From: an uncultured Gammaproteobacteria bacterium
GTDB taxonomy: Bacteria; Patescibacteriota; Patescibacteriia; Magasanikbacterales; UBA922
Assembly (NCBI GenBank): GCA_964522405.1
Contig: CAZFTR010000004.1
Coordinates: 22,349 to 86,348 of the forward strand
Length of the DNA: 64,000 nucleotides
Reading direction: 5' to 3'
Position numbers and translations under genes: made by a program. The first letter of the stretch is position 1; every line of letters begins with the position of its first letter. Positions 47,552-60,497 of the stretch are shown here, one piece after another. The notes under the pieces were generated by a model, which saw only the letters and a program-made list of their open reading frames with translations, did no database searches and was not told the origin of the DNA.

Positions 47552-48298
47552 TTATTCAAGTAACAAAAGCGCCAGCATGGCAACAATTCCCAGGATAAAA
47601 GAAATTAGTTGAATAGTAGATCTTGAAACTTTAAGTTCTTTGTGCAATTCCGGAATAAGATCAGCGCTAGCAATATAAATAAAAACACCTGCAGCAAAAG
47701 GAATAAAATAAAATACAAATTTATCAGTCTGATTTGCCAAAATAAAAGCAATCACGACACCTAAAAATGAAGTTAGAGCAGTAATGAAATTCAAAAAAAT
47801 AGCCTTTCTTCTGGAATATCCACCATGGACCAGTACTGCAAAATCACTAATCTCTTGAGGAATCTCATGCATGATAACCGCAAAAGTAGTGGCAATTCCT
47901 ACCGGAATACTTACCATATAGCTAGCTGCTATTATCAAACCATCAATAAAATTATGCACCCCATCCCCAATTAGATTTGTAATAGCAAAAGGATGGACAT
48001 GATGATTACCATGTTCTGAATGATGACAATGATGCCAATGTATAACTTTTTCCACCAGAAACATGACAATAATACCAAGAAGTACAGCAAGGGAAATTTG
48101 CAATGTAAAACCGGATTCTTCTACTGCTTCTGGTAAAAGATGAATAAAACTATCACCAATAAGGGTTCCGGCAGCAAAGCTAACTAGAAAAAAAATGAGA
48201 AGTTTAATTCTTTCTAATTTTAAACTCAAGAGAATTACTCCAGCCAATGAAATAAGACTGACCAGTAAAACACTTAATAATGAATATGTTAATATCAT
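47552..48298 (-). CDS. ZIP-family metal transporter (ZupT-like)
   Basis: His-rich loop HHCHHSEHGNHHVHP and the HEIPQE/HGG ZIP signature. Confidence 0.8.
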   Translation of the reverse strand: MILTYSLLSVLLVSLISLAGVILLSLKLERIKLLIFFLVSFAAGTLIGDSFIHLLPEAVEESGFTLQISLAVLLGIIVMFLVEKVIHWHHCHHSEHGNHHVHPFAITNLIGDGVHNFIDGLIIAASYMVSIPVGIATTFAVIMHEIPQEISDFAVLVHGGYSRRKAIFLNFITALTSFLGVVIAFILANQTDKFVFYFIPFAAGVFIYIASADLIPELHKELKVSRSTIQLISFILGIVAMLALLLLE

Positions 48299-49284: not shown

Positions 49285-49563
49285 TTATCTGTCACGTCGT
49301 GCATTCATGCACTCGCGGCAGTAAACTGGCTTGTCATTTGACGGTTGAAATGGAAGTTGGGTAATTTTTGTACCACATTCTCCACAATCAATATCTACGT
49401 CATATAGTCTGCGCTGTGGTCTGTTCTCACGACTTTGTCTAAATTCGCGATTACAATCAGCACAGTAAACAGGTCTGTCGCCAGATGGTTGAAATGGAAG
49501 TTGTGAAATGTGAGTATTACACTTAGCACAGCTTAGATCCACATCATACATTTGTCTGTCCAT
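49285..49563 (-). CDS. Tandem zinc-ribbon protein
   Basis: Two repeats of YDVD.xC.xC...QLPFQPS.D.PVYC..C. Confidence 0.55.
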   Translation of the reverse strand: MDRQMYDVDLSCAKCNTHISQLPFQPSGDRPVYCADCNREFRQSRENRPQRRLYDVDIDCGECGTKITQLPFQPSNDKPVYCRECMNARRDR

Positions 49564-50255: not shown

Positions 50256-50981
50256 TTATTCAGCTAAAATAAAATTCAAATCAAGATTAAAGCTAATATC
50301 ATCCTTGATAGCCTTGTCACCCAACTCTTTAAATATTGAACCTGATTTAAAATTAATACCCCAACGAGTACGATCAATATCAAAATCAGCCTTAACATTG
50401 AAAACACCTCCCTCATCTATAGTCTTTGCCTGAAAACTGATTTCTTTAGTCTTATCAAGAATTGTTAAATTACCTTCTACTTCATAAAGTTCTAGCTCTA
50501 TCTGCTTAAGAAAGGTTAAGACAAATTTAGTCTCAGGAAAATTTTCTACATTAAAAAAATCTTCTGAGCGAATATGTTTTAAAAATAATTCACTTTCCTT
50601 ATCATCATCAATACTTTGCATATCTATTATAAACTCTCCAGAATCAAAAAATCCCTTTTCTTTCATAAGCAAACCACTCTTCAAATCAACACTACCAGTA
50701 TGCCCACCCCCCGCTACATGCGATGCTGACCAGTTTAATTGAGAATTAGTAGTATCCAAAGTATATTTTTGAGAAGGCATTATTTCCTGATTTTCTTCTT
50801 GTAGCTCTTCTTTTTCCTCAGCAGGCACTACTTCTTCTACTGCCACATCTTCATTTAACTGTTCTGTCTCAAGAGCAGGCACGACTTGCTCCACCGGCAC
50901 TTGTTCAACCCCTTTTGAACAACCCGCGCCAATCAATAAAAACAATACCAAAAATCCTCCTATTTTCAAATATTTTTGCAT
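50256..50981 (-). CDS. YceI-like lipoprotein, distal gene of the copper/redox operon
   Basis: Lipobox LIGAGCSK and a YceI-like core (TGSVDLKSG...ENFPETKFVLT). Confidence 0.6.
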   Translation of the reverse strand: MQKYLKIGGFLVLFLLIGAGCSKGVEQVPVEQVVPALETEQLNEDVAVEEVVPAEEKEELQEENQEIMPSQKYTLDTTNSQLNWSASHVAGGGHTGSVDLKSGLLMKEKGFFDSGEFIIDMQSIDDDKESELFLKHIRSEDFFNVENFPETKFVLTFLKQIELELYEVEGNLTILDKTKEISFQAKTIDEGGVFNVKADFDIDRTRWGINFKSGSIFKELGDKAIKDDISFNLDLNFILAE

Positions 50982-51064
50982 AGATAAAAATAATAATAAC
51001 TAATTAAGTTTACATTATTAAGAAATAATTTCAATTGTGTATAATTGAGAGCAAAATTATACTA

Positions 51065-53218
51065 CTATAATTTCTTTCTCCTGATCCTCAAGCTATTTCC
51101 CACAACTGAAACACTACTCATACTCATAGCTGCAGCAGCTATAATAGGGCTGAGTACTCCAAACATGGCAAGTGGTATTGCCACTACATTGTAGATAAAA
51201 GCAAAGAATAGATTTTGCTTAATAGAAGAAAATGTTTGACGAGAAAGTCTGATAGCTTCTACAACTTTTTGAGGATTACTCTGCATCAGCACTATACTTC
51301 CGGCTTCTATTGCCACATCTGTTCCACTACCCACCGCAATACCAAGATCTGCTTGTGCAAGAGCCGGAGCATCGTTTATTCCGTCCCCTACAAATGCCAC
51401 CACTTCTCCCTTTTTTTGCAGTTTTTGAACTTCTTCTGCCTTATGATCAGGCATTATATTTGCCACTACGTGCTCAATATCAAGTTGCTTTGCTATTGCT
51501 TGCGCTGTTTTCTCGTGATCCCCAGTAATCATATAGACATCTATATTCTGAGAACCAAGCTGCTGCACTGCTTTTTTTGCAGTGTCACGCACCACATCTG
51601 CCACAGCTACGATAGCAATTATTTTTTTATCTTCTACTACATACATTGGTGTTTTTCCATCATTTGCCAATCTCTCAAAAACTTCACTATACTTTTTGTT
51701 TTGTTCAACACCAACCTCTTCAACTAATTTAGAGTTACCAAGCTTAATACTTCTTGATTCAATCACACCCTCTACACCTTTACCAGATATTGCTCGAACA
51801 TCAGTTACTTTTTTAAGATCAAACTTATTGTTTTTTGCATATTTAGCAAATGCAGAAGCTAACACATGCTCGCTTTGAGATTCAATAGAACAAGCAAGAA
51901 CCATGATGTCTTTTTCATCTGTGTCTTTAGCAAATATCTCTATATCTGTAACAACCGGCTCGGCTTTTGTCAGAGTACCTGTCTTATCAAACATTACAGA
52001 TGTAATTTTGTGAGCAATTTCAAGACTTTGAGATTCCTTGATAAGTATTCCGTTTTCTGCACCTTTTCCGCTTCCAACCATAATAGCTGTTGGGGTTGCA
52101 AGACCAAGAGCGCACGGACAAGCAATTACAAGCACGGCAACCGCATGAATAATACTTGCCTCAAGTCCTGCTGACACCATAAACATCCAGACTAGAAATG
52201 TAGCAAGCGCTAGCAACATAACAATCGGAACAAAAACCCCAGCCACTTTGTCTGCAAGTTTTTGAATTGGAGCTTTTGAACTCTGTGCTTGTTCAACCAG
52301 CTTTATAATTTGTGAAAGCACAGTATCTTCCCCAACCTTTGTTACTTTTACTTCAATTACACCGGAACCATTGATAGTTGCTCCATAGACAAGATCGCCT
52401 ACATTTTTTTCTACCGGAATACTTTCACCTGTAAGCATTGATTCGTTTACAGAAGTTGATCCTTTTAGCACTTCAGAATCAAGTGGAATTTTCTCTCCAG
52501 GCTTTACCAGTAACAGATCTCCAACACGGATTTTCTCTACATCCATTTCTTGCTCCTCTCCATCTACAAGTACTCGTGCTTTTTTAACACCAAGCGCTAA
52601 TAGTTTTTGTATAGCACTTGAAGCCCTACCTTTACTCTTCTCTTCCAGATATTTACCAAGAAGTATAAGCGTAATAATAACTGCAGCAGTTTCAAAATAT
52701 ACATGACCATCAAAGAGCATTGCATAAACCGAGTATGCAAAGGCTGCAATCGTACCAACAGATACCAGTGTATCCATATTTGCCCGAAATCTCTTTAGCT
52801 GAATTAACATCCCTTTGTGAAACTGCCAACCAACGACAAAAACTACCCAAGCTGTCAATATAGCCATTATCATCATGACTGTTTGATTTTTCATGAGAAC
52901 AGGAACAAACATGGTCAAAAGCAGTGGCAATGTCAGAACAAAGGCAGTTATAAATTTTTTTCTTGCTTTTTGAGTAGCAGTATCATGTTGAGGCTTCTTG
53001 GCACCCTCACGCTCTACTTGGTAATCTCCTGCTTTTGAAATTGCCTCATCAATCGCCCCTTCACTCACCATATTTTCATCATACTCAACATAAGCCTTGC
53101 TCATACCATAATTAACTGATGCTTTTTTTATTCCATCAATTTTACCTAATTGTTTTTCAATATTAAGAGCGCAACTTGTACAGTGCATCCCTTGAATTTT
53201 TAAGCTATCTTTTTTCAT
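51065..53218 (-). CDS. copA: Copper-translocating P1B-type ATPase
   Basis: N-terminal HMA (GMHCTSCA), TM CPC motif, DKTGTLT and GDGINDAP. Confidence 0.9.
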
Positions 53219-53219
53219 A

Positions 53220-54557
53220 TTATTCTATTACATTAAATGAACCGCGGATCATCCCCATCCAGCAGCTAAATGAGACTGTACCTGCGCTTGTAGGAGTAAA
53301 TTCTACAATATTTTGACCAGGTGTAAGCTTTTTACTGATTCCATATTTTGGAACAATAACCTCATTTGAACAACCTGTAATTTGCTTACCATTTATAATC
53401 CATTTTACTGGTACGCCTTTTTTAATTTCAAATCTATTTGGTGTAAATCCGTAATAGTCTACATCCATTTCTATAACTTGTACTCCATTCTCAACAGCAA
53501 TACCTGAATTGTTGGATTCCCTTACTTCTCCTCCCCCAAGAACTATACCATTGGCTGCAAGTCCTGACGAGAGGGTATACCAGGCAAAAGCAAGAATAAC
53601 AAATCCAATTACTTTTTTGAGTACAATACGATCTAGGTTTTGACTTTTTGTACTCATCACACCCACCCCAAGCAAAACCGGCATAGTTCCAAAAGCAAAA
53701 AGCGCAAGTGTCATACCACCTACAAAGAAACTACCGGAAGCTACAGCAAAAAGTTGCATACTTTGTGTAAATCCGCAGGGCAAGAAAAAGGTAAATGCGC
53801 CAAGCACAACCGGAGCCATAGCATGTTCAGATTTTTTTATCTTATTCCAGTACTTAATGACTCCTTTTGGCATATGAAATCCGGTACTAGTGATAGATGG
53901 CAGAACCCCAAGAATATTTAATCCCATCCAAGCAAGAACAACAGCAATAAACACAGTAAACCAACCCATTGCGGAAATTGAAAGCTCAAAGAAATTTCCA
54001 ACTGTCGCCAACAATCCACCCAAGATAAAGAAGGCACCAATGCGACCTACGTGAAACAGTAAATGTGGTTTGGTATTTCTCTCAAACTTCGAACCTTTTG
54101 ACTGGTATTTTGCACCAAACGAGATGACAACCGCACCAACTACTGCCAAACATGTAGAAAGTGAGGCTACTATACCGACTAGAATCGCTGCGCCATAGCC
54201 AATATTTACAGTCTCAATCTCCAGAAAACTCAATATTCCTATCCATTTAAAGTATCTATATACCCAATACAGACAAAACACGACAAATAGAGACCAATAC
54301 CACTGCGCTTTGGTTGCTTTTTTCTTTGGCTGAACCTTAGAGTCAGATGTTTCAGATACCGCATATCCGAGCTTTTTAAGTTTATGCATTATCTTTCCCA
54401 TGTTCAGTGAATTTCCAGAAAATTGTATCTCGGCAATCTGTTTTTTATGACAAACAACCACTTCTTCTATATTTTCAATTCCATTGAGTTCGTCTGAAAT
54501 AATGGTCTCACAAGAGACGCAGGTCATGCCCACTATTTTAAATTGTTTTTTTCCCAT
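53220..54557 (-). CDS. Fusion protein: HMA metal-binding domain, CcdA/DsbD-type thiol-transfer membrane domain and a C-terminal cupredoxin-like domain
   Basis: HMA motif GMTCVSCE; two TM cysteines ([17 protein letters not shown]); C-terminal beta domain with GCSNEV...FSCWMGM. Confidence 0.55.
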
Positions 54558-54605
54558 ATAAATATGAATTGTCTATTTACTAACTATATTGCTTATCCCA
54601 CTAAA

Positions 54606-54989
54606 TCAAACTTCATCAATCACTTTTTTTAATTTCTCTTCTACCAGCATACCGACTTCTTCTAACTCAGGATTACCTATCATACCCATAGCAGCTGAAG
54701 GTAACATGGCAGATACATAAACCTTTCCATCACGCTCATAGACAATAACATTGCAGGGCAAAAATAGTCCAATTTCTCTTTCTACTTGCAAGACCTGGTA
54801 TGCAGATTCAGGATTGCAAACACCAAGAATTAGATAATTATCAAAATCCACATCAAGTTTTTTCTTAAGAGTTGCCTTTACATCTATTTCAGTCATAATG
54901 CCAAAACCTTCCAAATCTAATTGTTTTTTAGTCTTTTCAATTGCCTCGACAAATGATATATCTAATTGTTTAGTGTATCCGTATTTCAT
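54606..54989 (-). CDS. DUF302 protein
   Basis: ILGVCNP motif and a DUF302 layout. Confidence 0.7.
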   Translation of the reverse strand: MKYGYTKQLDISFVEAIEKTKKQLDLEGFGIMTEIDVKATLKKKLDVDFDNYLILGVCNPESAYQVLQVEREIGLFLPCNVIVYERDGKVYVSAMLPSAAMGMIGNPELEEVGMLVEEKLKKVIDEV

Positions 54990-55054
54990 ATTATTAAAGT
55001 TAATTTAGACAGATCACAGAATCCTGTGACCTGTCTAACTAATTTAGCGGTTTT

Positions 55055-55933
55055 TTATTCTGCCTTTGGTTTTACTATTTTACCTGTACTTAAATCCTTG
55101 TATGGTTGTCCAAGAGCTGTCATTTCTCTAAAAACAAACATACCGTCAGGCTCTACTGTTCCAACCTGATTCCAAAGTTGAGTTAGAGCTGGATAATTCT
55201 TTGTTTCACTTGAAAGAATAATAGTCGGCAATCCCTTTATTTGATATTTTTCTATCAATTCTTTTCCAATATTTTCAGAAATATCAAAACTCTCGATATT
55301 AGAGAAACCTAACCCAAAACGTTGTAAAATAGGTTGCTGAACAGCCACCACATCATAACAATCAGTACAAGTTTTATCGGTTATATAAATCAAATTAACC
55401 AAACCCATAGTCTGATTTTGGGCTAAATTGAAATATGGAACAATCTCTGACTCCCAAACAATAACCTTATTATTAACTTTCCGAGAACCTTTTTCAAGAG
55501 CTTGTGCTAATTTACTATTTATTTCTTCTTCAGCAACAAATATCAAAGCTGGTAATTTCTTTAATTCAAACCGCTCAATAACTTCTTTTGCTTTTTCAGT
55601 GCCAAATGTATAAATTTTATCATCACTTAATTCTACATTTTGACTACTAAGAACCTTCTTCTCAGCTGCCATATCACCACATTGCGGACAACTCTCTGGT
55701 AAAACCAATAATAACTCCCCTTCTTGTGGCTTTGTTATTTCAATTGCTTGATTTAATTTATTATTTACTGTAAATGTAAAAAATCCCATTACAATAATAT
55801 TTAGAACCACAACAATACCAAGTATTATTGCTAATATCTCAATAGTATTTTTTCTTTGTGGCCTTTTTTTCTCTTCTTTACTTTGACAACAACCCTTTTC
55901 AGGATTAAGATCTTTTTTTATTTCTTCAGTCAT
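55055..55933 (-). CDS. Membrane-anchored thioredoxin-like protein with two CxxC motifs
   Basis: N-terminal TM helix, then CPQCGD and CTDCYD in Trx-like contexts. Confidence 0.6.
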   Translation of the reverse strand: MTEEIKKDLNPEKGCCQSKEEKKRPQRKNTIEILAIILGIVVVLNIIVMGFFTFTVNNKLNQAIEITKPQEGELLLVLPESCPQCGDMAAEKKVLSSQNVELSDDKIYTFGTEKAKEVIERFELKKLPALIFVAEEEINSKLAQALEKGSRKVNNKVIVWESEIVPYFNLAQNQTMGLVNLIYITDKTCTDCYDVVAVQQPILQRFGLGFSNIESFDISENIGKELIEKYQIKGLPTIILSSETKNYPALTQLWNQVGTVEPDGMFVFREMTALGQPYKDLSTGKIVKPKAE

Positions 55934-56043
55934 AATTTATTATTTATTAATGAATAACCACCCCCTAGCCCCCCCTTGAAAAGAGGGGGAATGAATTTGT
56001 TTTCAATCACTTGTTAATTACGAGTTGTTAATTGTCAATTAAT

Positions 56044-56229
56044 TTAGCATCCCCCTACCATTTGTGGCGCAGAACCATCATCACTGAAACTTACTGCTGA
56101 TGGAGAAGATCCTAAACCGACTTCTGCTTCTACTAATTTTTTATTTACACTGGCCAGAGCCGCTGTCTGAAATGATAGAGCAATCACTGCTGCCGCAAGC
56201 ATAATTGTTAGATTTTTTTTACTGAACAT
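56044..56229 (-). CDS. Small secreted peptide ending in ...PQMVGGC
   Basis: Signal peptide (...ALASV) and a ~35-aa mature part. Its C-terminal MVGGC is identical to that of the upstream gene. Confidence 0.45.
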   Translation of the reverse strand: MFSKKNLTIMLAAAVIALSFQTAALASVNKKLVEAEVGLGSSPSAVSFSDDGSAPQMVGGC

Positions 56230-56263
56230 ATTCTATTTATTAGTTATTAATTCTTAAATAAAT

Positions 56264-57433
56264 TTAACATCCCCCAACCATACCCGGAGCTTTGGTATCA
56301 GGAACAAAACCGGATTTTTTTGCCTTTTCGCTTAAATCTTTTATCTCCTCTTCAGTTAAATTCATTGTTAGATACTTAATATCCGGAAGATAATCCTTTT
56401 TTTCACCGGAAAGTGACTCTGCCATGCGTTTTTGCATTTGCGATGGAAAATATAAACCTTTTTGTCGCATAAGCTCATAAGAAATATCTGCATTTGTAAG
56501 TTCTGGATAATTTCGAATAAGGTATGCAGCGGTTCCACGCATAGCTATTGAGTGAGCGCAACCACAAGTAGGTGTGCCATCTTCACGAACCAAGGTTTTT
56601 ACTCCACAACAAAATTCACAGGTAATGTATGGCTCTGTTCCTATGGCAACATATCTTTTCATTTCTTCATCAGTCAACTCTATTGGATTTGATCCTTGTT
56701 TGGGCGCCATTTTTGATAATTTTGCAATTGAAGCATTTATAGCATTCAAATTAGACATATCTAACCCAAGTTCCGGACCATAGAATGGTAATTGAGCGGG
56801 AGTAACCAAAGAAGCTATATCCTTTGCAAAATCACCTGAAAGAGCGATTTCACCATTCATATCATGACCAATCATAGTGTTTCCAATTTGCATGGCATAA
56901 GCCTGATTTGTTATGAAAAGTACTGCAACAAAGACAACTGCAAATTTTTGAAACAATATATGCAGATCAGCCTTTGGCAATTTCCTTGGCTGGAAATTTT
57001 TTACTAATAAAAATATTCCAATACCAAGCAAGACAATGGAAAGCAATCTAATCCACCAGAAATATGGCGCAAGAGCCAAAACTGTTGTTGAAAGTCCAAA
57101 ATATGCCAGGAAAAATACCGGGCAGACCGGACAAAGCATTGTAAACAATGCTAATATTCCTGATCCTGAACCAATTGAACATGATGCCGCATTGAACTTT
57201 CTAGCTATGGCAAATAAAGCAGTTCCAAATCCAAACAAAATTGCAAATAATCCTGCGAAAGCCAGATCAAATCCGCTCACCTCTGACATAAATGGAATTC
57301 GATACTGAATTACCGGTAATTTCCACAGCCCGAGAAACAGGGTTTGGATTCCAAAAACCGCTATTGACGATCCCAGAAACCACAACCAAAATTGCTCAAG
57401 CCAGACTATAGATATTATTTTCTTTTTTAACAT
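56264..57433 (-). CDS. Membrane protein with a TM CPVCP motif, a Cys-rich soluble domain (CEFCCG...CGC) and a C-terminal ...PGMVGGC
   Basis: 389 aa: an N-terminal polytopic domain and a C-terminal soluble domain. The last 18 nt are nearly identical to the 3' end of the 56044..56229 gene. Confidence 0.5.
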   Translation of the reverse strand: MLKKKIISIVWLEQFWLWFLGSSIAVFGIQTLFLGLWKLPVIQYRIPFMSEVSGFDLAFAGLFAILFGFGTALFAIARKFNAASCSIGSGSGILALFTMLCPVCPVFFLAYFGLSTTVLALAPYFWWIRLLSIVLLGIGIFLLVKNFQPRKLPKADLHILFQKFAVVFVAVLFITNQAYAMQIGNTMIGHDMNGEIALSGDFAKDIASLVTPAQLPFYGPELGLDMSNLNAINASIAKLSKMAPKQGSNPIELTDEEMKRYVAIGTEPYITCEFCCGVKTLVREDGTPTCGCAHSIAMRGTAAYLIRNYPELTNADISYELMRQKGLYFPSQMQKRMAESLSGEKKDYLPDIKYLTMNLTEEEIKDLSEKAKKSGFVPDTKAPGMVGGC

Positions 57434-57466
57434 AGAGCTTTTTTCTTAATTAATTCTTATTTTTTA

Positions 57467-57919
57467 TCATGTCTTTGTGCAAGACATATTCTTTTGTTTT
57501 TTAACCCTTAACCACATGTACCAAATACCAAATATATTTACTACAGCGCCAATCGCAAGAAATAAATCTTGATACTTACTCATAGTTGTGGCAATACCCA
57601 TAAATCCCAGAACCGGAAAAAGATCTGCAAGATGATGGGCGCAACATGCGACCATAGCCACTCCTCCAGCACTGGCAGAAGCACCTGCCATGGCCAGCTT
57701 ATTTTCGTGAACAATAAAACGCAATTTTTGAAATAAATACATTTGTATTCCAAATCCAATCATTATGGGAGCTAAAAAATACCATCTTTCCAGAAAAAAT
57801 AAAAATGGATGCAATGGATCTTTTGTAGTTAGTAGGAGCAACAAGTAATAGAATACTATCATTATCAAGAAACCAATAGAACCAATCAGATATGGATTTA
57901 GTTTTGGCTTATTCATCAT
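57467..57919 (-). CDS. Small membrane protein with an intramembrane CC pair (ACCAHH)
   Basis: Start ATGATG at 57919/57916 overlaps the upstream stop (the ORF-track start at 57955 is an extension). About four TM helices. Confidence 0.45.
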   Translation of the reverse strand: MMNKPKLNPYLIGSIGFLIMIVFYYLLLLLTTKDPLHPFLFFLERWYFLAPIMIGFGIQMYLFQKLRFIVHENKLAMAGASASAGGVAMVACCAHHLADLFPVLGFMGIATTMSKYQDLFLAIGAVVNIFGIWYMWLRVKKQKNMSCTKT

Positions 57920-58451
57920 ACCTAAGATTATTAAACTCAAGCAATACTTCTCCAACCGGCATATCTGCTATTCTGAGAATAAGGGGCTCGTCAACATATT
58001 CAAAACTTAAAATACCAGCTATGTGATGTCCACCAATAGCGTCTGAAAAGGCATTCCAAGCTATAGCTTTTTCTCCATTTAACTCTGAAATTGATTTGTA
58101 ATCAAATTCAGCAAGATTAATTCTGTGATTATCTAGATTTAGCAGAATATTTGTATTTTTCAAATCAATATCTTCAGATAGAAATTCACTGCCAAATTCT
58201 TTTTCTAACTTCTCAATATTTTCCTCTGTTATCACTTCTGCGTCAAACTGTATAAAACCAACTTGTGAATTTGCTTTTTGTACTTTTATCTCTTCTTTTT
58301 CATTTGACTGAAGATGATTTTCCAAATCTTCCATACTGCTTTCCACTACAGAATTTATATTTGACGCAGCATAGAGATCCTTACCAACTTTCACCACCAC
58401 AATCAGCACAAATCCAATTAAAAGAGCAAGCAATATCTTTTTCATAGGCAT
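57909..58451 (-). CDS. Signal-anchored hypothetical protein
   Basis: N-terminal TM helix then an acidic soluble domain; part of the same operon. Confidence 0.45.
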   Translation of the reverse strand: MPMKKILLALLIGFVLIVVVKVGKDLYAASNINSVVESSMEDLENHLQSNEKEEIKVQKANSQVGFIQFDAEVITEENIEKLEKEFGSEFLSEDIDLKNTNILLNLDNHRINLAEFDYKSISELNGEKAIAWNAFSDAIGGHHIAGILSFEYVDEPLILRIADMPVGEVLLEFNNLRYDE

Positions 58452-58463
58452 AAATTAATTGAT

Positions 58464-58904
58464 TTACCAATTTTTACAACATTCAATTATACGTTTTACA
58501 ATTCCACTAAGTCTTGAATTTGATCTATAAAAATATGCAAATCCAAACAATGTCCAAAGCGCCAGCAACAAGGCAATGGATTTTCCAATATTTTCAGTGT
58601 GTCCAAGAACTACAAACACCAGAAAAGTGGCTGTTAACAAAAAAGGCAAGCGGAAAATTAAAAAATCCTTTTTTACCTTCTTCTCAAGTAGATAATACAA
58701 CCCAACCACGCTCTGTCCCATAAGCGCTGCTATAATTATTGGATATTCAAATTTTCCTAACCAGTATAACATAAGTAAAATAATCCAAGTTATACTAACA
58801 CTGGCGCAAATCGCGCAAATTTCAAGCTTTGTGAGTCTTTTGAATATCAAAAATACTGGAAACAGAGCTGAAATGCTGACTAACACTAGAAATACAGGAC
58901 TCAT
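58464..58904 (-). CDS. Small polytopic membrane protein with a TM CxxC (CAIC)
   Basis: 146 aa, four TM helices, overlaps the upstream gene by 4 nt (ATGA). Confidence 0.45.
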   Translation of the reverse strand: MSPVFLVLVSISALFPVFLIFKRLTKLEICAICASVSITWIILLMLYWLGKFEYPIIIAALMGQSVVGLYYLLEKKVKKDFLIFRLPFLLTATFLVFVVLGHTENIGKSIALLLALWTLFGFAYFYRSNSRLSGIVKRIIECCKNW

Positions 58905-59425
58905 AGAGCAAATTGCATAATAAGAGAAGTTATGAATAGTAAAACAAAGGTGATGGCAATACCTTGATAAGGAATTATTTTGCCATTTCTTAATTTTGAC
59001 AACTCTCTACTCAAGTAAGGAGAAACAAACATGATTAATGTACCTATGATCACACCAATCAAAAAACGATTGAACATATAAGTACGATTAAACATGGCTC
59101 CATACTCACCAAACCAATATATATTTACAGATGTATAATGTCGCATCATGGGCATAAGCGGGAGAATGGTTGAAAGAAAAACCAGAGCTGCCAAAATTGG
59201 TTTTTGGTGCTTTATATATTTCTTTTTTACCAATTTTACTATCCACAAAGACAATGCTAGAGCAAAAGCACCAATCAGAATTCCCACAACATAGGTACTA
59301 ACACCGATATATGCCGCGCCAACAGCCAGAGCTCCTGCTCCCGCAGTACACAATGGGCAATGAGCTTTGGCAACACCCGGAATAAGAGCAAAAACCACTA
59401 ATAAACCAAAGAATTTTTTCTTCAT
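58901..59425 (-). CDS. Membrane protein with an N-terminal CPLC motif
   Basis: Signal/TM helix, then HCPLCTAGAG and four TM helices. Confidence 0.45.
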   Translation of the reverse strand: MKKKFFGLLVVFALIPGVAKAHCPLCTAGAGALAVGAAYIGVSTYVVGILIGAFALALSLWIVKLVKKKYIKHQKPILAALVFLSTILPLMPMMRHYTSVNIYWFGEYGAMFNRTYMFNRFLIGVIIGTLIMFVSPYLSRELSKLRNGKIIPYQGIAITFVLLFITSLIMQFAL

Positions 59426-59434
59426 ATTTACAAA

Positions 59435-59902
59435 TTAAAGTTCTGTAAATAATGAAGTGTTTCCCTCTGCGTCAACGCGATGAATTTTAAACACAGCCTT
59501 TGGTCCCGGCATTCCAGGAGAACCGGATGGCATTCCCGGCATGGCGATCATATGCTCGTCTGAATCCATCATCATTTCAATTCCCTTCACTGGAATATGC
59601 CCTTCTACAACTTTTCCATCTTCAAAAACAGAAGTGTGACAACTTTCCATATGAGCTGGAACACTGTGCTCTGCTTTTATAGCTGCCATATTTTCTGTTT
59701 CAATTACCTCCACATCATAACCCTCGCGACGAAGATAAGTAGCATAATTAGCACAACATCCGCAAGTTGGTGACTTATACACTTTTACAGATTGAGCTGA
59801 AGCAATCCCGGCATTTTCTGAAGTATTAAACAATCTGGGAGCAAAGAGCGCAGCTCCAACCAGAAGCACCACAATCGCAATTACTTTTTTTTGTTTTTTC
59901 AT
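59435..59902 (-). CDS. DUF411/CopG-like periplasmic metal-binding protein with a Met/Pro-rich tail
   Basis: CGCC, SCHT and EGHIP motifs of DUF411; C-terminal MMMDSDEHMIAMPGMPSGSPGMPGP. Confidence 0.65.
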   Translation of the reverse strand: MKKQKKVIAIVVLLVGAALFAPRLFNTSENAGIASAQSVKVYKSPTCGCCANYATYLRREGYDVEVIETENMAAIKAEHSVPAHMESCHTSVFEDGKVVEGHIPVKGIEMMMDSDEHMIAMPGMPSGSPGMPGPKAVFKIHRVDAEGNTSLFTEL

Positions 59903-59971
59903 ATAAGTAGATAAAAATTAAATATTAAAAAACCACATCAAAAAAATCAATGTGGAAAATTTAAAATCTAT

Positions 59972-60397
59972 TTACCAAGTTTTGGGATGAAGAATTCCAA
60001 TTCTAAAAAGTTGCCTGAAATGATCTAATATTTGCCAACTTCCGTACCTATGCCGGAGATGAACCATGTACTGATGAAAATCTTGTTTGAGTGCATAAAT
60101 TCTCTGTTTATTCAAAGCAACAGTCAATAAAATAAGAGAAAAACCAGCCAAACTAAGCAAAATTGCTTTTAAAATTTCTTCTAAACTAGTCAACATTGGT
60201 AAGTAATCATGATTCATTTGACTAGCCGGAACCTCCATAGCGCAACAAGGCATCATTTCCATATCTGCACTTGCTCCGGGCATAATATGGCCCGGCATTG
60301 CAAATACTCCAAGACGTAGACCCCCACAAAAAAAGGCAAAGCTGGTAATAGTGATTGCAATCACCAATGTTTTTATATGCTTTTTACTAAAATTCAT
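59972..60397 (-). CDS. Met-rich membrane-anchored protein, first gene of the operon
   Basis: MPGHIMPGASADMEMMPCCAMEV followed by one TM helix. Confidence 0.45.
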   Translation of the reverse strand: MNFSKKHIKTLVIAITITSFAFFCGGLRLGVFAMPGHIMPGASADMEMMPCCAMEVPASQMNHDYLPMLTSLEEILKAILLSLAGFSLILLTVALNKQRIYALKQDFHQYMVHLRHRYGSWQILDHFRQLFRIGILHPKTW

Positions 60398-60497
60398 ACC
60401 TGATTATGATAGCAAAAATATTATTAAATGTAAATATGTTAATTATTTTGCCTACAAAAAAGAGGCTTCAAACCTCTTTTTCTTATTTCTATAAATT

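Follow-up and report, generated by a model that had tools for sequence, protein, structure and literature searches.

What could a cluster of 13 genes do when seven of its proteins belong to no known family? Such a cluster lies at positions 50256–60397 on the minus strand of the window, which is the whole stretch of DNA analysed in this study (64,000 nucleotides of contig CAZFTR010000004.1, assembly GCA_964522405.1, from a member of the Patescibacteria with a tiny genome). The opposite strand carries no competing long open reading frame (ORF) there. The co-directional ORFs of the cluster are numbered g1–g13 in transcription order, and all gene coordinates given below refer to the minus strand of the window. 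A first-pass annotation, made by a model from the letters of the DNA, had described these genes as a copper and thiol-redox operon; its 13 minus-strand genes agree exactly with the ORF coordinates, and the motifs that it quoted (Met-rich, CPLC, CAIC, CC, CPVCP and double CxxC) are all present in the translations. We propose that the cluster encodes an undescribed cell-surface system that handles Cu(I) and protects thiols, built on "cysteine-tail" proteins. This function is drawn from sequence and context, and its probability is put at about 45%. Envelope defence based on CopA, CopG, CcdA and thioredoxin, which deals with copper and thiol redox, is already known; what is new here is the set of core components and the pairing of cysteine tails.

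The most conserved unit consists of the C-terminal domain of g7 (g7C), the tail peptide g8 and the tandem thioredoxin g9. The middle block of the cluster had been proposed as an undescribed thiol relay or metal-transfer system. It is indeed undescribed, but its most conserved core is this trio and not the Cys-pair membrane proteins, and its function is still read from composition and context.

The terminal cysteine of g7 and g8

The g7 protein (56264–57433; 389 aa) consists of an N-terminal membrane module (residues 1–189; 56867–57433) with an LCPVCP motif and a C-terminal domain of about 200 residues (residues 190–389; 56264–56866) that is predicted to face outward. The domain holds the invariant residues C272, C275, C276, C290, C292 and H294 in the pattern CE[FY]CCG-13-C[GS]CAH, which in the window reads CEFCCG-(13)-CGCAH and is encoded at 56552–56620. 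A variable linker and a terminal LPxMVGGC follow. The structure of the domain is predicted to be all-alpha with a small hairpin. Just downstream lies g8 (56044–56229), a 61-aa signal-anchored or secreted peptide. Both proteins terminate in MVGGC, encoded at 56267–56281 in g7 and at 56047–56061 in g8, and they are the sole GGC-ending ORFs in the window. This shared end had not been recorded in the first-pass annotation.

The tail is conserved well beyond the window. The last residues of g7 are [M/Q][V/I]G[G/E]C in 66 of 67 homologues from the databases, and GGC in 64 of them. A g7 profile search of 1.84 billion cluster representatives recovered 274 members at E<=1e-3, of which 233 were found at E<=1e-10. 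The 150 matches listed include 145 further representatives, and among these a GGC end is present in 109 and a G-x-C end in about 19 more; the remainder are mostly fragments. The tail of the g7 domain is almost always [M/Q][V/A]GGC. GGC is by far the most frequent tripeptide ending in the loci related to the cluster: 173 of 11,413 ORFs end in it, and the tripeptide in second place was found 28 times. In the AlphaFold model the g7 tail was assigned a predicted local distance difference test score (pLDDT) of 74–80, and a free coil would score lower.

The two tails also vary together. In 73 of the 77 loci with enough downstream sequence, the g7 homologue is followed, no more than 1.5 kb away, by a small anchored ORF with a GGC tail. 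The dipeptides that precede GGC in the two proteins of a locus are MV/MV in 62 cases, QV/QV in 5, MA/MA in 3 and QQ/QQ in 1, with 2 mismatched pairs. Over the six residues before GGC, 4.04 are identical within a locus, compared with 3.09 (sd 0.085) in shuffled pairs. Some of this likeness is due to shared ancestry. In nine of the 11 loci that depart from M-V, however, the two proteins depart in the same way, which suggests that one partner recognises both.

Several other explanations of the domain and its tail were considered and rejected. g7C is not a divergent PCYCGC domain (PF13798): the hhalign probability was 5.6%, and true PCYCGC proteins are encoded as separate genes in 7 related loci. 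VGGC is not a lipobox-like or sortase-type sorting signal, since the protein ends with it, without a hydrophobic or basic stretch beyond, and the proteins already possess N-terminal anchors. g8 was also considered as the precursor of a ribosomally synthesised and post-translationally modified peptide; this was set aside because a large domain protein has the identical tail and no maturation enzymes are present. In some DPANN archaeal loci, a third protein ends in MVGGC. It is 75–112 aa long, with a Met/His-rich motif, W(T/S)ENE.MNYEMHG (L062 10974–11294; L071 7406–7633; L082 955–1209; L068 20240–20578; such numbers denote related loci).

Distribution of the trio and the families around it

One genome per GTDB species was scanned for the g7 domain, which is encoded in at least 504 species genomes of candidate phyla radiation (CPR) bacteria and DPANN archaea, and the best 80 loci were kept. 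Among these best 80, 26 are labelled DPANN (Woese-, Pace- and Nanoarchaeota), and most of the remaining loci carry Patescibacteria/CPR labels (Magasanik-, Peregrini-, Buchanan-, Uhr-, Parcu- and Saccharibacteria, the last of these on L073, L080 and L083). Some database titles, namely "uncultured Gammaproteobacteria" (L024, L032, L035, L036, L039, L041, L044, L047, L052, L055, L072 and L074), "Methanosarcinales" (L018 and L021) and "Udaeobacter" (L077), conflict with the CPR/DPANN-like proteins and gene order of the loci. These public labels are probably mistaken; were they correct, the module would extend beyond CPR and DPANN.

The neighbours were counted by clustering all genes within 8 kb in 82 non-redundant loci and labelling them with Pfam. 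The tail peptide was found in 66 of the 82 loci (with a third tail protein in 9 DPANN loci), and a g9-type tandem thioredoxin in 59. DsbD_TM/CcdA proteins are the next most frequent partner (41 loci), a role that the g11 fusion would fill in the window. They are followed by a BlaR1-like M56 protease (37), a BlaI/CopY-family repressor (34), g5 (34) and g6 (29), which pair with each other in related loci, a CPxC module (27), DUF1573 (26) and the P1B ATPase CopA (25). Homologues of g3, CsoR-like repressors and a soluble protein ending in CCKE(W) each occur in 16 loci, g4 in 14, DUF302 and DsbA-like proteins in 9 each, DUF411 and peroxiredoxin-like proteins in 8 each, and PCYCGC in 7. The same gene set is syntenic in dozens of other genomes, and clustering is thus far beyond chance. 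The possibility that the uncharacterised genes co-occur by accident, which the first-pass annotation had named as a reason to abandon its proposal, is not borne out, as the set recurs across CPR bacteria and DPANN archaea.

The third member of the trio, g9 (55055–55933), is a signal-anchored tandem thioredoxin-fold protein with CPQC and CTDC motifs and a GCC in its cytoplasmic N-terminal segment. The single sequence gave a weak match to Pfam Thioredoxin (E 2e-6). In an alignment of 20 homologues, C82/C85, C189/C192, P128 and P236 are invariant, and the profile built from this alignment matched the PDB entries 1J08 and 1A8L most closely (E 2e-7), with 2AYT and 2YWM at about 2e-3; these matches span both units. 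g9 is accordingly assigned as a distant relative of the protein disulfide oxidoreductases (PDOs), with two units that each have a CxxC and a cis-Pro, and with a predicted activity. Like the archaeal and Aquifex PDOs (1A8L, 1J08 and 2AYT), it has two thioredoxin-fold units, each with CxxC. However, PDOs are soluble and cytoplasmic, whereas g9 is N-terminally anchored, its domains are predicted to lie outside the cell, and the similarity is distant (E 2e-7). The DPANN versions of g9 have three thioredoxin units. A CC pair in the cytoplasmic N-terminal segment (GCCQSK, DCCSEKK or DCCAEHD) was seen only in the closest relatives (L005 10957–11838; L016 11118–12020), and distant homologues do not have it.

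A topology can be proposed for several of the proteins. In g2, g5, g7C, g8 and g9, an N-terminal segment rich in Lys and Arg and then a single hydrophobic helix suggest a location outside the membrane.

The seven proteins g1 and g3–g8 stand apart from the known families. In the window they matched neither Pfam (searched to an E of 10) nor NCBIfam (to an E of 0.1), and diverse members (29 of the g7 domain, 24 of g6 and 14 of g3) gave no consistent Pfam family. A scan of diverse g7C members against NCBIfam returned no family, searches of the PDB sequences with g5, g6 and g7C profiles yielded no relatives, and fold comparison of two AlphaFold models gave nothing specific. The first-pass view of these genes as uncharacterised was upheld in this respect: in Pfam and NCBIfam they matched neither MerT, MerC and MerF nor DsbB and VKOR, and the Pfam model of DsbD was likewise unmatched by all seven. 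For g3, g4, g6 and the g7 N-module, membership in MerT/MerC/MerF was found neither by family profiles nor by the MerF fold, and membership in DsbB/VKOR neither by profiles nor by the four-helix quinone-binding fold with a loop Cys pair and CxxC. The searchable literature on MVGGC, on PCYCGC and on copper or cysteine families of CPR and DPANN yielded no account of the g7 domain, the tail peptide or g3–g6.

These families nevertheless carry conserved Cys and His residues of their own. g3 (58901–59425) is a membrane protein with A-HCPLC immediately past its signal peptide; A21, H22, C23, P24, L25 and C26 are invariant in a 14-member alignment, and the mature N-terminus is therefore probably His-Cys-Pro-Leu-Cys. 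The family occurs in 16–20 related loci. g4 (58464–58904), a polytopic protein of the membrane, has CAIC where one transmembrane helix begins and ECCKNW at its C-terminus, and its homologues end in CC(K/R)(N/D)(W/F) or in CC. A soluble family of about 165 aa, which has no Pfam match, ends in CCKE(W) or CCDE, the same type of tail as the CCKNW of g4. It was found in 16 loci (L009 7483–8037; L027 14917–15408; L086 6261–6764; and 13 others), and in L009 it replaces g4 after g3. By the positive-inside rule, the CC tails of g4 and of this soluble family probably face the cytoplasm and would form a second conserved terminal-Cys tail in the system.

g5 (57909–58451) is a signal-anchored protein with a domain predicted to face outward and three invariant His residues in the pattern NNH...GGHH. 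In some genomes, g5-type proteins are fused to a DUF1573 or a rhodanese domain. A degenerate cupredoxin was considered for g5, as BLAST clustering had lumped the two together; hhalign against the cupredoxins of the loci aligned only the signal peptides and there was no Pfam match, and this assignment was rejected. g6 (57467–57919) is a four-helix membrane protein with ACCAHH, in whose family M..CC.H and YQ are invariant and a Cys near the C-terminus is frequent. It most likely starts at the ATG at 57919, which gives 150 aa and an 11-nt overlap with g5, rather than at the TTG at 57955 of the mechanical ORF. The N-terminal module of g7 is found elsewhere as a separate "GCPTCGAP" protein of about 160 aa (27 of the 82 loci), and the g7 domain there has a single N-terminal anchor only. 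g1 (59972–60397) is an anchored protein of 141 aa. It has a PCC motif, a stretch rich in Met and His and, at the C-terminus, a conserved GILHPKTW; homologues at the same position are restricted to the close relatives L003 and L005.

Copper, thiols and the competing explanations

The link to copper comes from the genes of known families. Six of the 13 genes (g2, g9, g10, g11, g12 and g13) could be placed by Pfam, and g2 and g9 also by the PDB. The first-pass assignments of DUF411, a thioredoxin-like protein (a weak match), DUF302, an HMA–CcdA–cupredoxin fusion, CopA and YceI were all recovered by Pfam. g12 (51065–53218) is a P1B-type ATPase, CopA, with an N-terminal HMA; Pfam found the E1-E2 ATPase, HAD and HMA domains, and ACPCALG, FIYNV and MSMSS were read from the translation. 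The CPC, YN and MxxSS signatures of the transmembrane segments are presumably those of P1B-1 Cu(I) ATPases, which would make g12 a Cu(I)-type enzyme. g2 (59435–59902) is a signal-anchored DUF411/CopG-like protein with CGCC, SCHT, VEGHIP and the tail MPGMPSGSPGMPG. It scored 49.7 bits against Pfam DUF411 (PF04214; cut-off 27), and residues 39–132 match PDB 6WIS, which is CopG, with an E of 2.4e-18. CGCC, SCHT, VEGH and PGMPSGSPGM line up with identical residues of 6WIS, and PGMPxGSPGM is conserved. g2 is thus a true CopG homologue with the CxCC and Met residues, and copper binding is predicted for it. In CopG, CxCC and adjacent Met residues hold a tetranuclear Cu cluster (PMC7558416).

In g11 (53220–54557), an HMA, a CcdA-like membrane domain and a cupredoxin are fused; Pfam detected HMA, DsbD_2 (100.9 bits; cut-off 24.9) and Cupredoxin_1. 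The two halves of the membrane domain contain one Cys each (STCLAV and LPCGF). This domain belongs to the DsbD/CcdA superfamily, and electron transfer is predicted.

Copper genes also recur elsewhere. In 30 of 87 loci, a homologue of CopA is encoded no further than 10 kb from g7C. In the 36 loci with at least 7 kb on both sides, CopA was found in 16 and at least one copper marker in 23, where by our estimate roughly 2% would be expected for one gene in a genome of about 1 Mb; g9 was found in 29. The CsoR-like proteins show a C-H-C fingerprint in 12 of 16 cases, which we take to be the fingerprint of Cu(I) sensors. Related loci also encode HMA proteins and cupredoxins, the latter of CuA-like and Cys/Met types. 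The first-pass inference of copper handling from CopA and DUF411 is strengthened by the Cu(I)-type motifs of CopA, the alignment of g2 with 6WIS and the recurrence of CsoR-like proteins, HMA and cupredoxins in related loci.

Two side observations concern these neighbours. A BlaI/CopY-family repressor and a BlaR1-like M56/M48 membrane protease are encoded directly upstream of the g7-domain gene in 34–37 loci (L027 8123–9722; L060 8262–8648; L006 8805–9877; and about 30 others). Small lipoprotein-like cupredoxins whose ligand pattern, H...CxxxCGxGHxxM, is of the CuA type occur in DPANN (L018 4364–4810; L019 8199–8645; L023 8044–8487; L025 6497–6952), which is unexpected for organisms thought to have no respiratory oxidases.

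The hosts have no periplasm enclosed by an outer membrane. In the system that we propose, Cu(I) would be expelled by CopA at the outer face of the membrane and captured by tethered ligands. Candidates for these are HCPLC at the N-terminus of g3, the site with three His in g5, Met-rich g1, the CxCC of the CopG homologue and, above all, the tail thiolate of g8 and g7. The tails of g8 and g7 may act as swinging arms that bring Cu(I), or a thiol/disulfide, to the Cys/His site of g7, comparable to the GGCGG arm of SoxY and the C-terminal Cys pair of MerA. Electrons from the cytoplasm would pass through the CcdA-like domain to the tandem thioredoxin, and the tail Cys and the Cys cluster would be kept reduced despite copper-catalysed oxidation, as in DsbD-DsbG and ScsB-ScsC. 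Further Cys pairs may be placed on the cytoplasmic side, in g4 and, elsewhere, in the soluble protein ending in CCKEW. Together with these g4-type pairs, the in-membrane pairs of g6 and the g7 N-module may pass metal or electrons across.

Several parts of this proposal have precedents. ScsB and ScsC are Cu(I)-binding proteins that protect thiols of the envelope or repair them (PMC10907172). The present cluster shares with the Scs and DsbD-DsbC/DsbG systems a DsbD/CcdA-type membrane electron transporter and exported thioredoxin-fold proteins, as well as the link to copper stress. However, g9, as a PDO-like tandem thioredoxin, differs from the DsbA/DsbG-like ScsC; nothing in Scs corresponds to g7C, g8, g3, g4, g5 or g6, and the hosts here are CPR and DPANN. 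Genes for CopG are often linked to copA (PMC7558416), as g2 is here to the Cu(I)-type CopA g12. In canonical cop, pco and cus loci, in contrast, all seven new families and the cysteine-tail pair are missing. Among the analogies with SoxY, Scs, DsbD-DsbG and CopG/CopA, family matches exist only for g2, g11 and g12.

Certain observations weigh against a copper and thiol-protection system. The identity of the metal is deduced solely from the neighbours and the Met, His and Cys composition. The outward-facing Cys residues might simply form disulfides, and the cluster of five Cys and one His could be a structural Zn site. In some clades the Met of the tail is replaced by Gln, so that Met is no obligatory Cu(I) ligand. 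Four of the CsoR-like proteins have C-H-H instead of C-H-C, and no regulator gene is encoded within the cluster of the window. About one third of the loci with complete flanks contain no copper marker within 7–10 kb, and the trio of g7C, g8 and g9 may thus have a more general thiol role. Finally, the wide gaps between some of the genes (48–110 nt), some with hairpins, mean that the 13 genes may not all be co-transcribed.

A more general proposal can be made for the trio, which we regard as possible but somewhat doubtful: g7C, g8 and g9 would form a new cell-surface carrier-arm machine common to CPR bacteria and DPANN archaea. In it, two tethered proteins with flexible arms would present an identical terminal Cys to a redox or metal centre of a new type, formed by Cys and His, and exported thiols would be oxidised, reduced or metallated without quinones, a respiratory chain or an outer membrane. 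A candidate chemistry is quinone-independent, possibly copper-dependent, disulfide exchange. The sharing of the trio between bacteria and archaea would reflect transfer of the module between the two domains.

Much of microbial diversity belongs to CPR bacteria and DPANN archaea, which have genomes of about 1 Mb and many proteins of no known function. The conserved module consists of about ten genes, seven of them from families outside Pfam, NCBIfam and PDB, and is present in several hundred species from the two domains. If the copper and thiol-protection function is true, this would be the first account of how copper is handled and exported Cys is protected or processed in organisms without an outer membrane and quinones, and the tail would be the second natural C-terminal Cys "swinging arm" after that of SoxY. 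The invariant LPxMVGGC end would then serve as a simple searchable marker and a direct experimental handle.

Four other explanations were weighed. The cluster may serve the maturation of copper proteins and not detoxification. The P1B ATPase would supply external Cu(I), and the tail proteins, g5 and g3 would be chaperones that load outward-facing cupredoxins, such as the C-terminus of g11 and the CuA-like or Cys-Met cupredoxins elsewhere, comparable to Sco/PCuAC with TlpA. Assembly of CuA of the Sco/TlpA type needs a thioredoxin that reduces the Cys ligands of the target, which would suit the presence of g9, and cupredoxin domains recur in the loci. CopG has also been proposed to hand Cu to cuproproteins (PMC7558416). 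However, the trio occurs without a cupredoxin in many loci, and scans of the window and related-locus proteins detected no Sco, PCuAC or Cox11 family. CsoR-type repressors, moreover, typically control efflux and detoxification. We consider maturation unlikely.

An explanation that we hold to be unlikely as well is a general thiol-disulfide system for exported proteins that merely adjoins copper genes. It would reductively protect single Cys residues, or support quinone-free oxidative folding in organisms without quinones, DsbB and VKOR; the redox centre would lie in the g7 domain, and the Cys residues of the tails would serve as shuttles, in the manner of the CGC arm at the C-terminus of Erv2. 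This agrees with the genes found most often beside g7C, since a tandem thioredoxin is present in 59 of 82 loci and DsbD_TM in 41, and CopA in only 25. DsbA-like and peroxiredoxin-like genes are present in some loci, and CPR and DPANN are reported to lack electron-transport chains (PMC7507113). However, no flavin- or quinone-binding fold was recognised, an obvious terminal electron acceptor is not present, and the enrichment of CopA, CsoR, HMA, cupredoxin and DUF411 is hard to account for without copper.

It is also conceivable, although quite improbable, that the terminal Cys covalently carries sulfane sulfur or persulfide intermediates with rhodanese-type partners. The CsoR family includes persulfide sensors, and DoxX and DUF302 are among the neighbours. 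A rhodanese is fused to or adjoins g5-type proteins in L003 and a DUF411 protein in L066; rhodaneses were seen in few loci only. The model for such a carrier is SoxY, whose Cys in the C-terminal GGCGG is a mobile arm that enters the active sites of partner proteins (PMC5336275; PMC6067878). The tails of g7 and g8 resemble it in that a single Gly-flanked Cys stands at the extreme C-terminus of an exported protein. However, g7 and g8 gave no SoxY match in Pfam or in fold, the g7 domain being predicted as all-alpha and not as the SoxY beta-sandwich; the tail is GGC-COOH and not GGCGG, with Cys as the last residue and no GG after it; LPxMVGGC is found on two proteins side by side; and the neighbourhoods contain no SoxZ, SoxAX, SoxB or other Sox genes and have a copper and thioredoxin context, not one of sulfur oxidation. 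An identity of g7 or g8 with SoxY was rejected on these grounds, and the hosts have no respiratory chains. Mer-like transport of mercury or another thiophilic metal (Ag, Cd or Zn) by ligand exchange along Cys pairs in membrane helices is the least credible explanation: the vicinal CC in a membrane helix of g6 and the membrane CxxC of g4 and the g7 N-module recall MerT, MerF and MerC, the C-terminal CC tails recall the Cys pair of MerA, a thiophilic metal would be handed on between such sites as in Mer, and a ZIP transporter lies 2 kb downstream, but no sequence or fold relation was detected, MerA, MerR and MerP are absent, the ATPase is of the copper type, and tblastn of g6 against plasmids, where mer operons abound, gave no match.

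Layout of the cluster

The order and spacing of the genes differ in part from the first-pass annotation. The three small membrane proteins do not stand together at the head of the middle block, and the real order is g3 (CPLC), g4 (CAIC), g5 (signal-anchored) and g6 (CC). Spacing of 0–40 nt or ATGA overlaps had been claimed throughout. This holds for the tight junctions, which comprise the ATGA overlap of g3 and g4, the overlap of g5 and g6 and four gaps of 1–34 nt, but not for five wider gaps: 48 nt (g10–g11), 65 nt (g9–g10), 69 nt (g1–g2), 83 nt (g12–g13) and 110 nt (g8–g9).

Hairpins are present in three of the wider gaps. A hairpin with a T-run at 59933–59955 (minus strand), directly past g1 in the g1–g2 gap, is a candidate terminator or attenuator. 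In the 110-nt gap past g8, a G/C hairpin, CCCCCTC...GGGGGGG, lies at about 55960–55985. The g9–g10 gap contains a 34-nt near-perfect palindrome with a 15-bp stem, TTAGACAGGTCACAGGATTCTGTGATCTGTCTAA, at 55005–55038 (minus strand), which is a candidate operator, or a terminator without a T-run. The hairpins past g1 and g8 suggest that the cluster is split into several transcription units, or attenuated. The best match to a sigma-70-like promoter lies just upstream of g1 at 60406–60434 (minus strand), with TTTACA-17-TATCAT and an extended TG, and is a consensus match only.

The last two genes of known families are g10 and g13. g10 (54606–54989) is a DUF302 protein (93.1 bits in Pfam), a type found in 9–11 related loci. 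g13 (50256–50981) is a YceI-like lipoprotein (Pfam YceI, 96.6 bits) with the lipobox LIGAGC, and it is not a recurrent neighbour in other loci.

The flanks of the cluster hold housekeeping or unrelated genes, namely TypA/BipA upstream and a zinc-finger protein, a methyltransferase and a ZIP transporter downstream. Just downstream and on the same strand as the cluster, the zinc-finger protein has a duplicated treble clef (49285–49563), and the ZIP-family metal transporter is encoded at 47552–48298, about 2 kb away.

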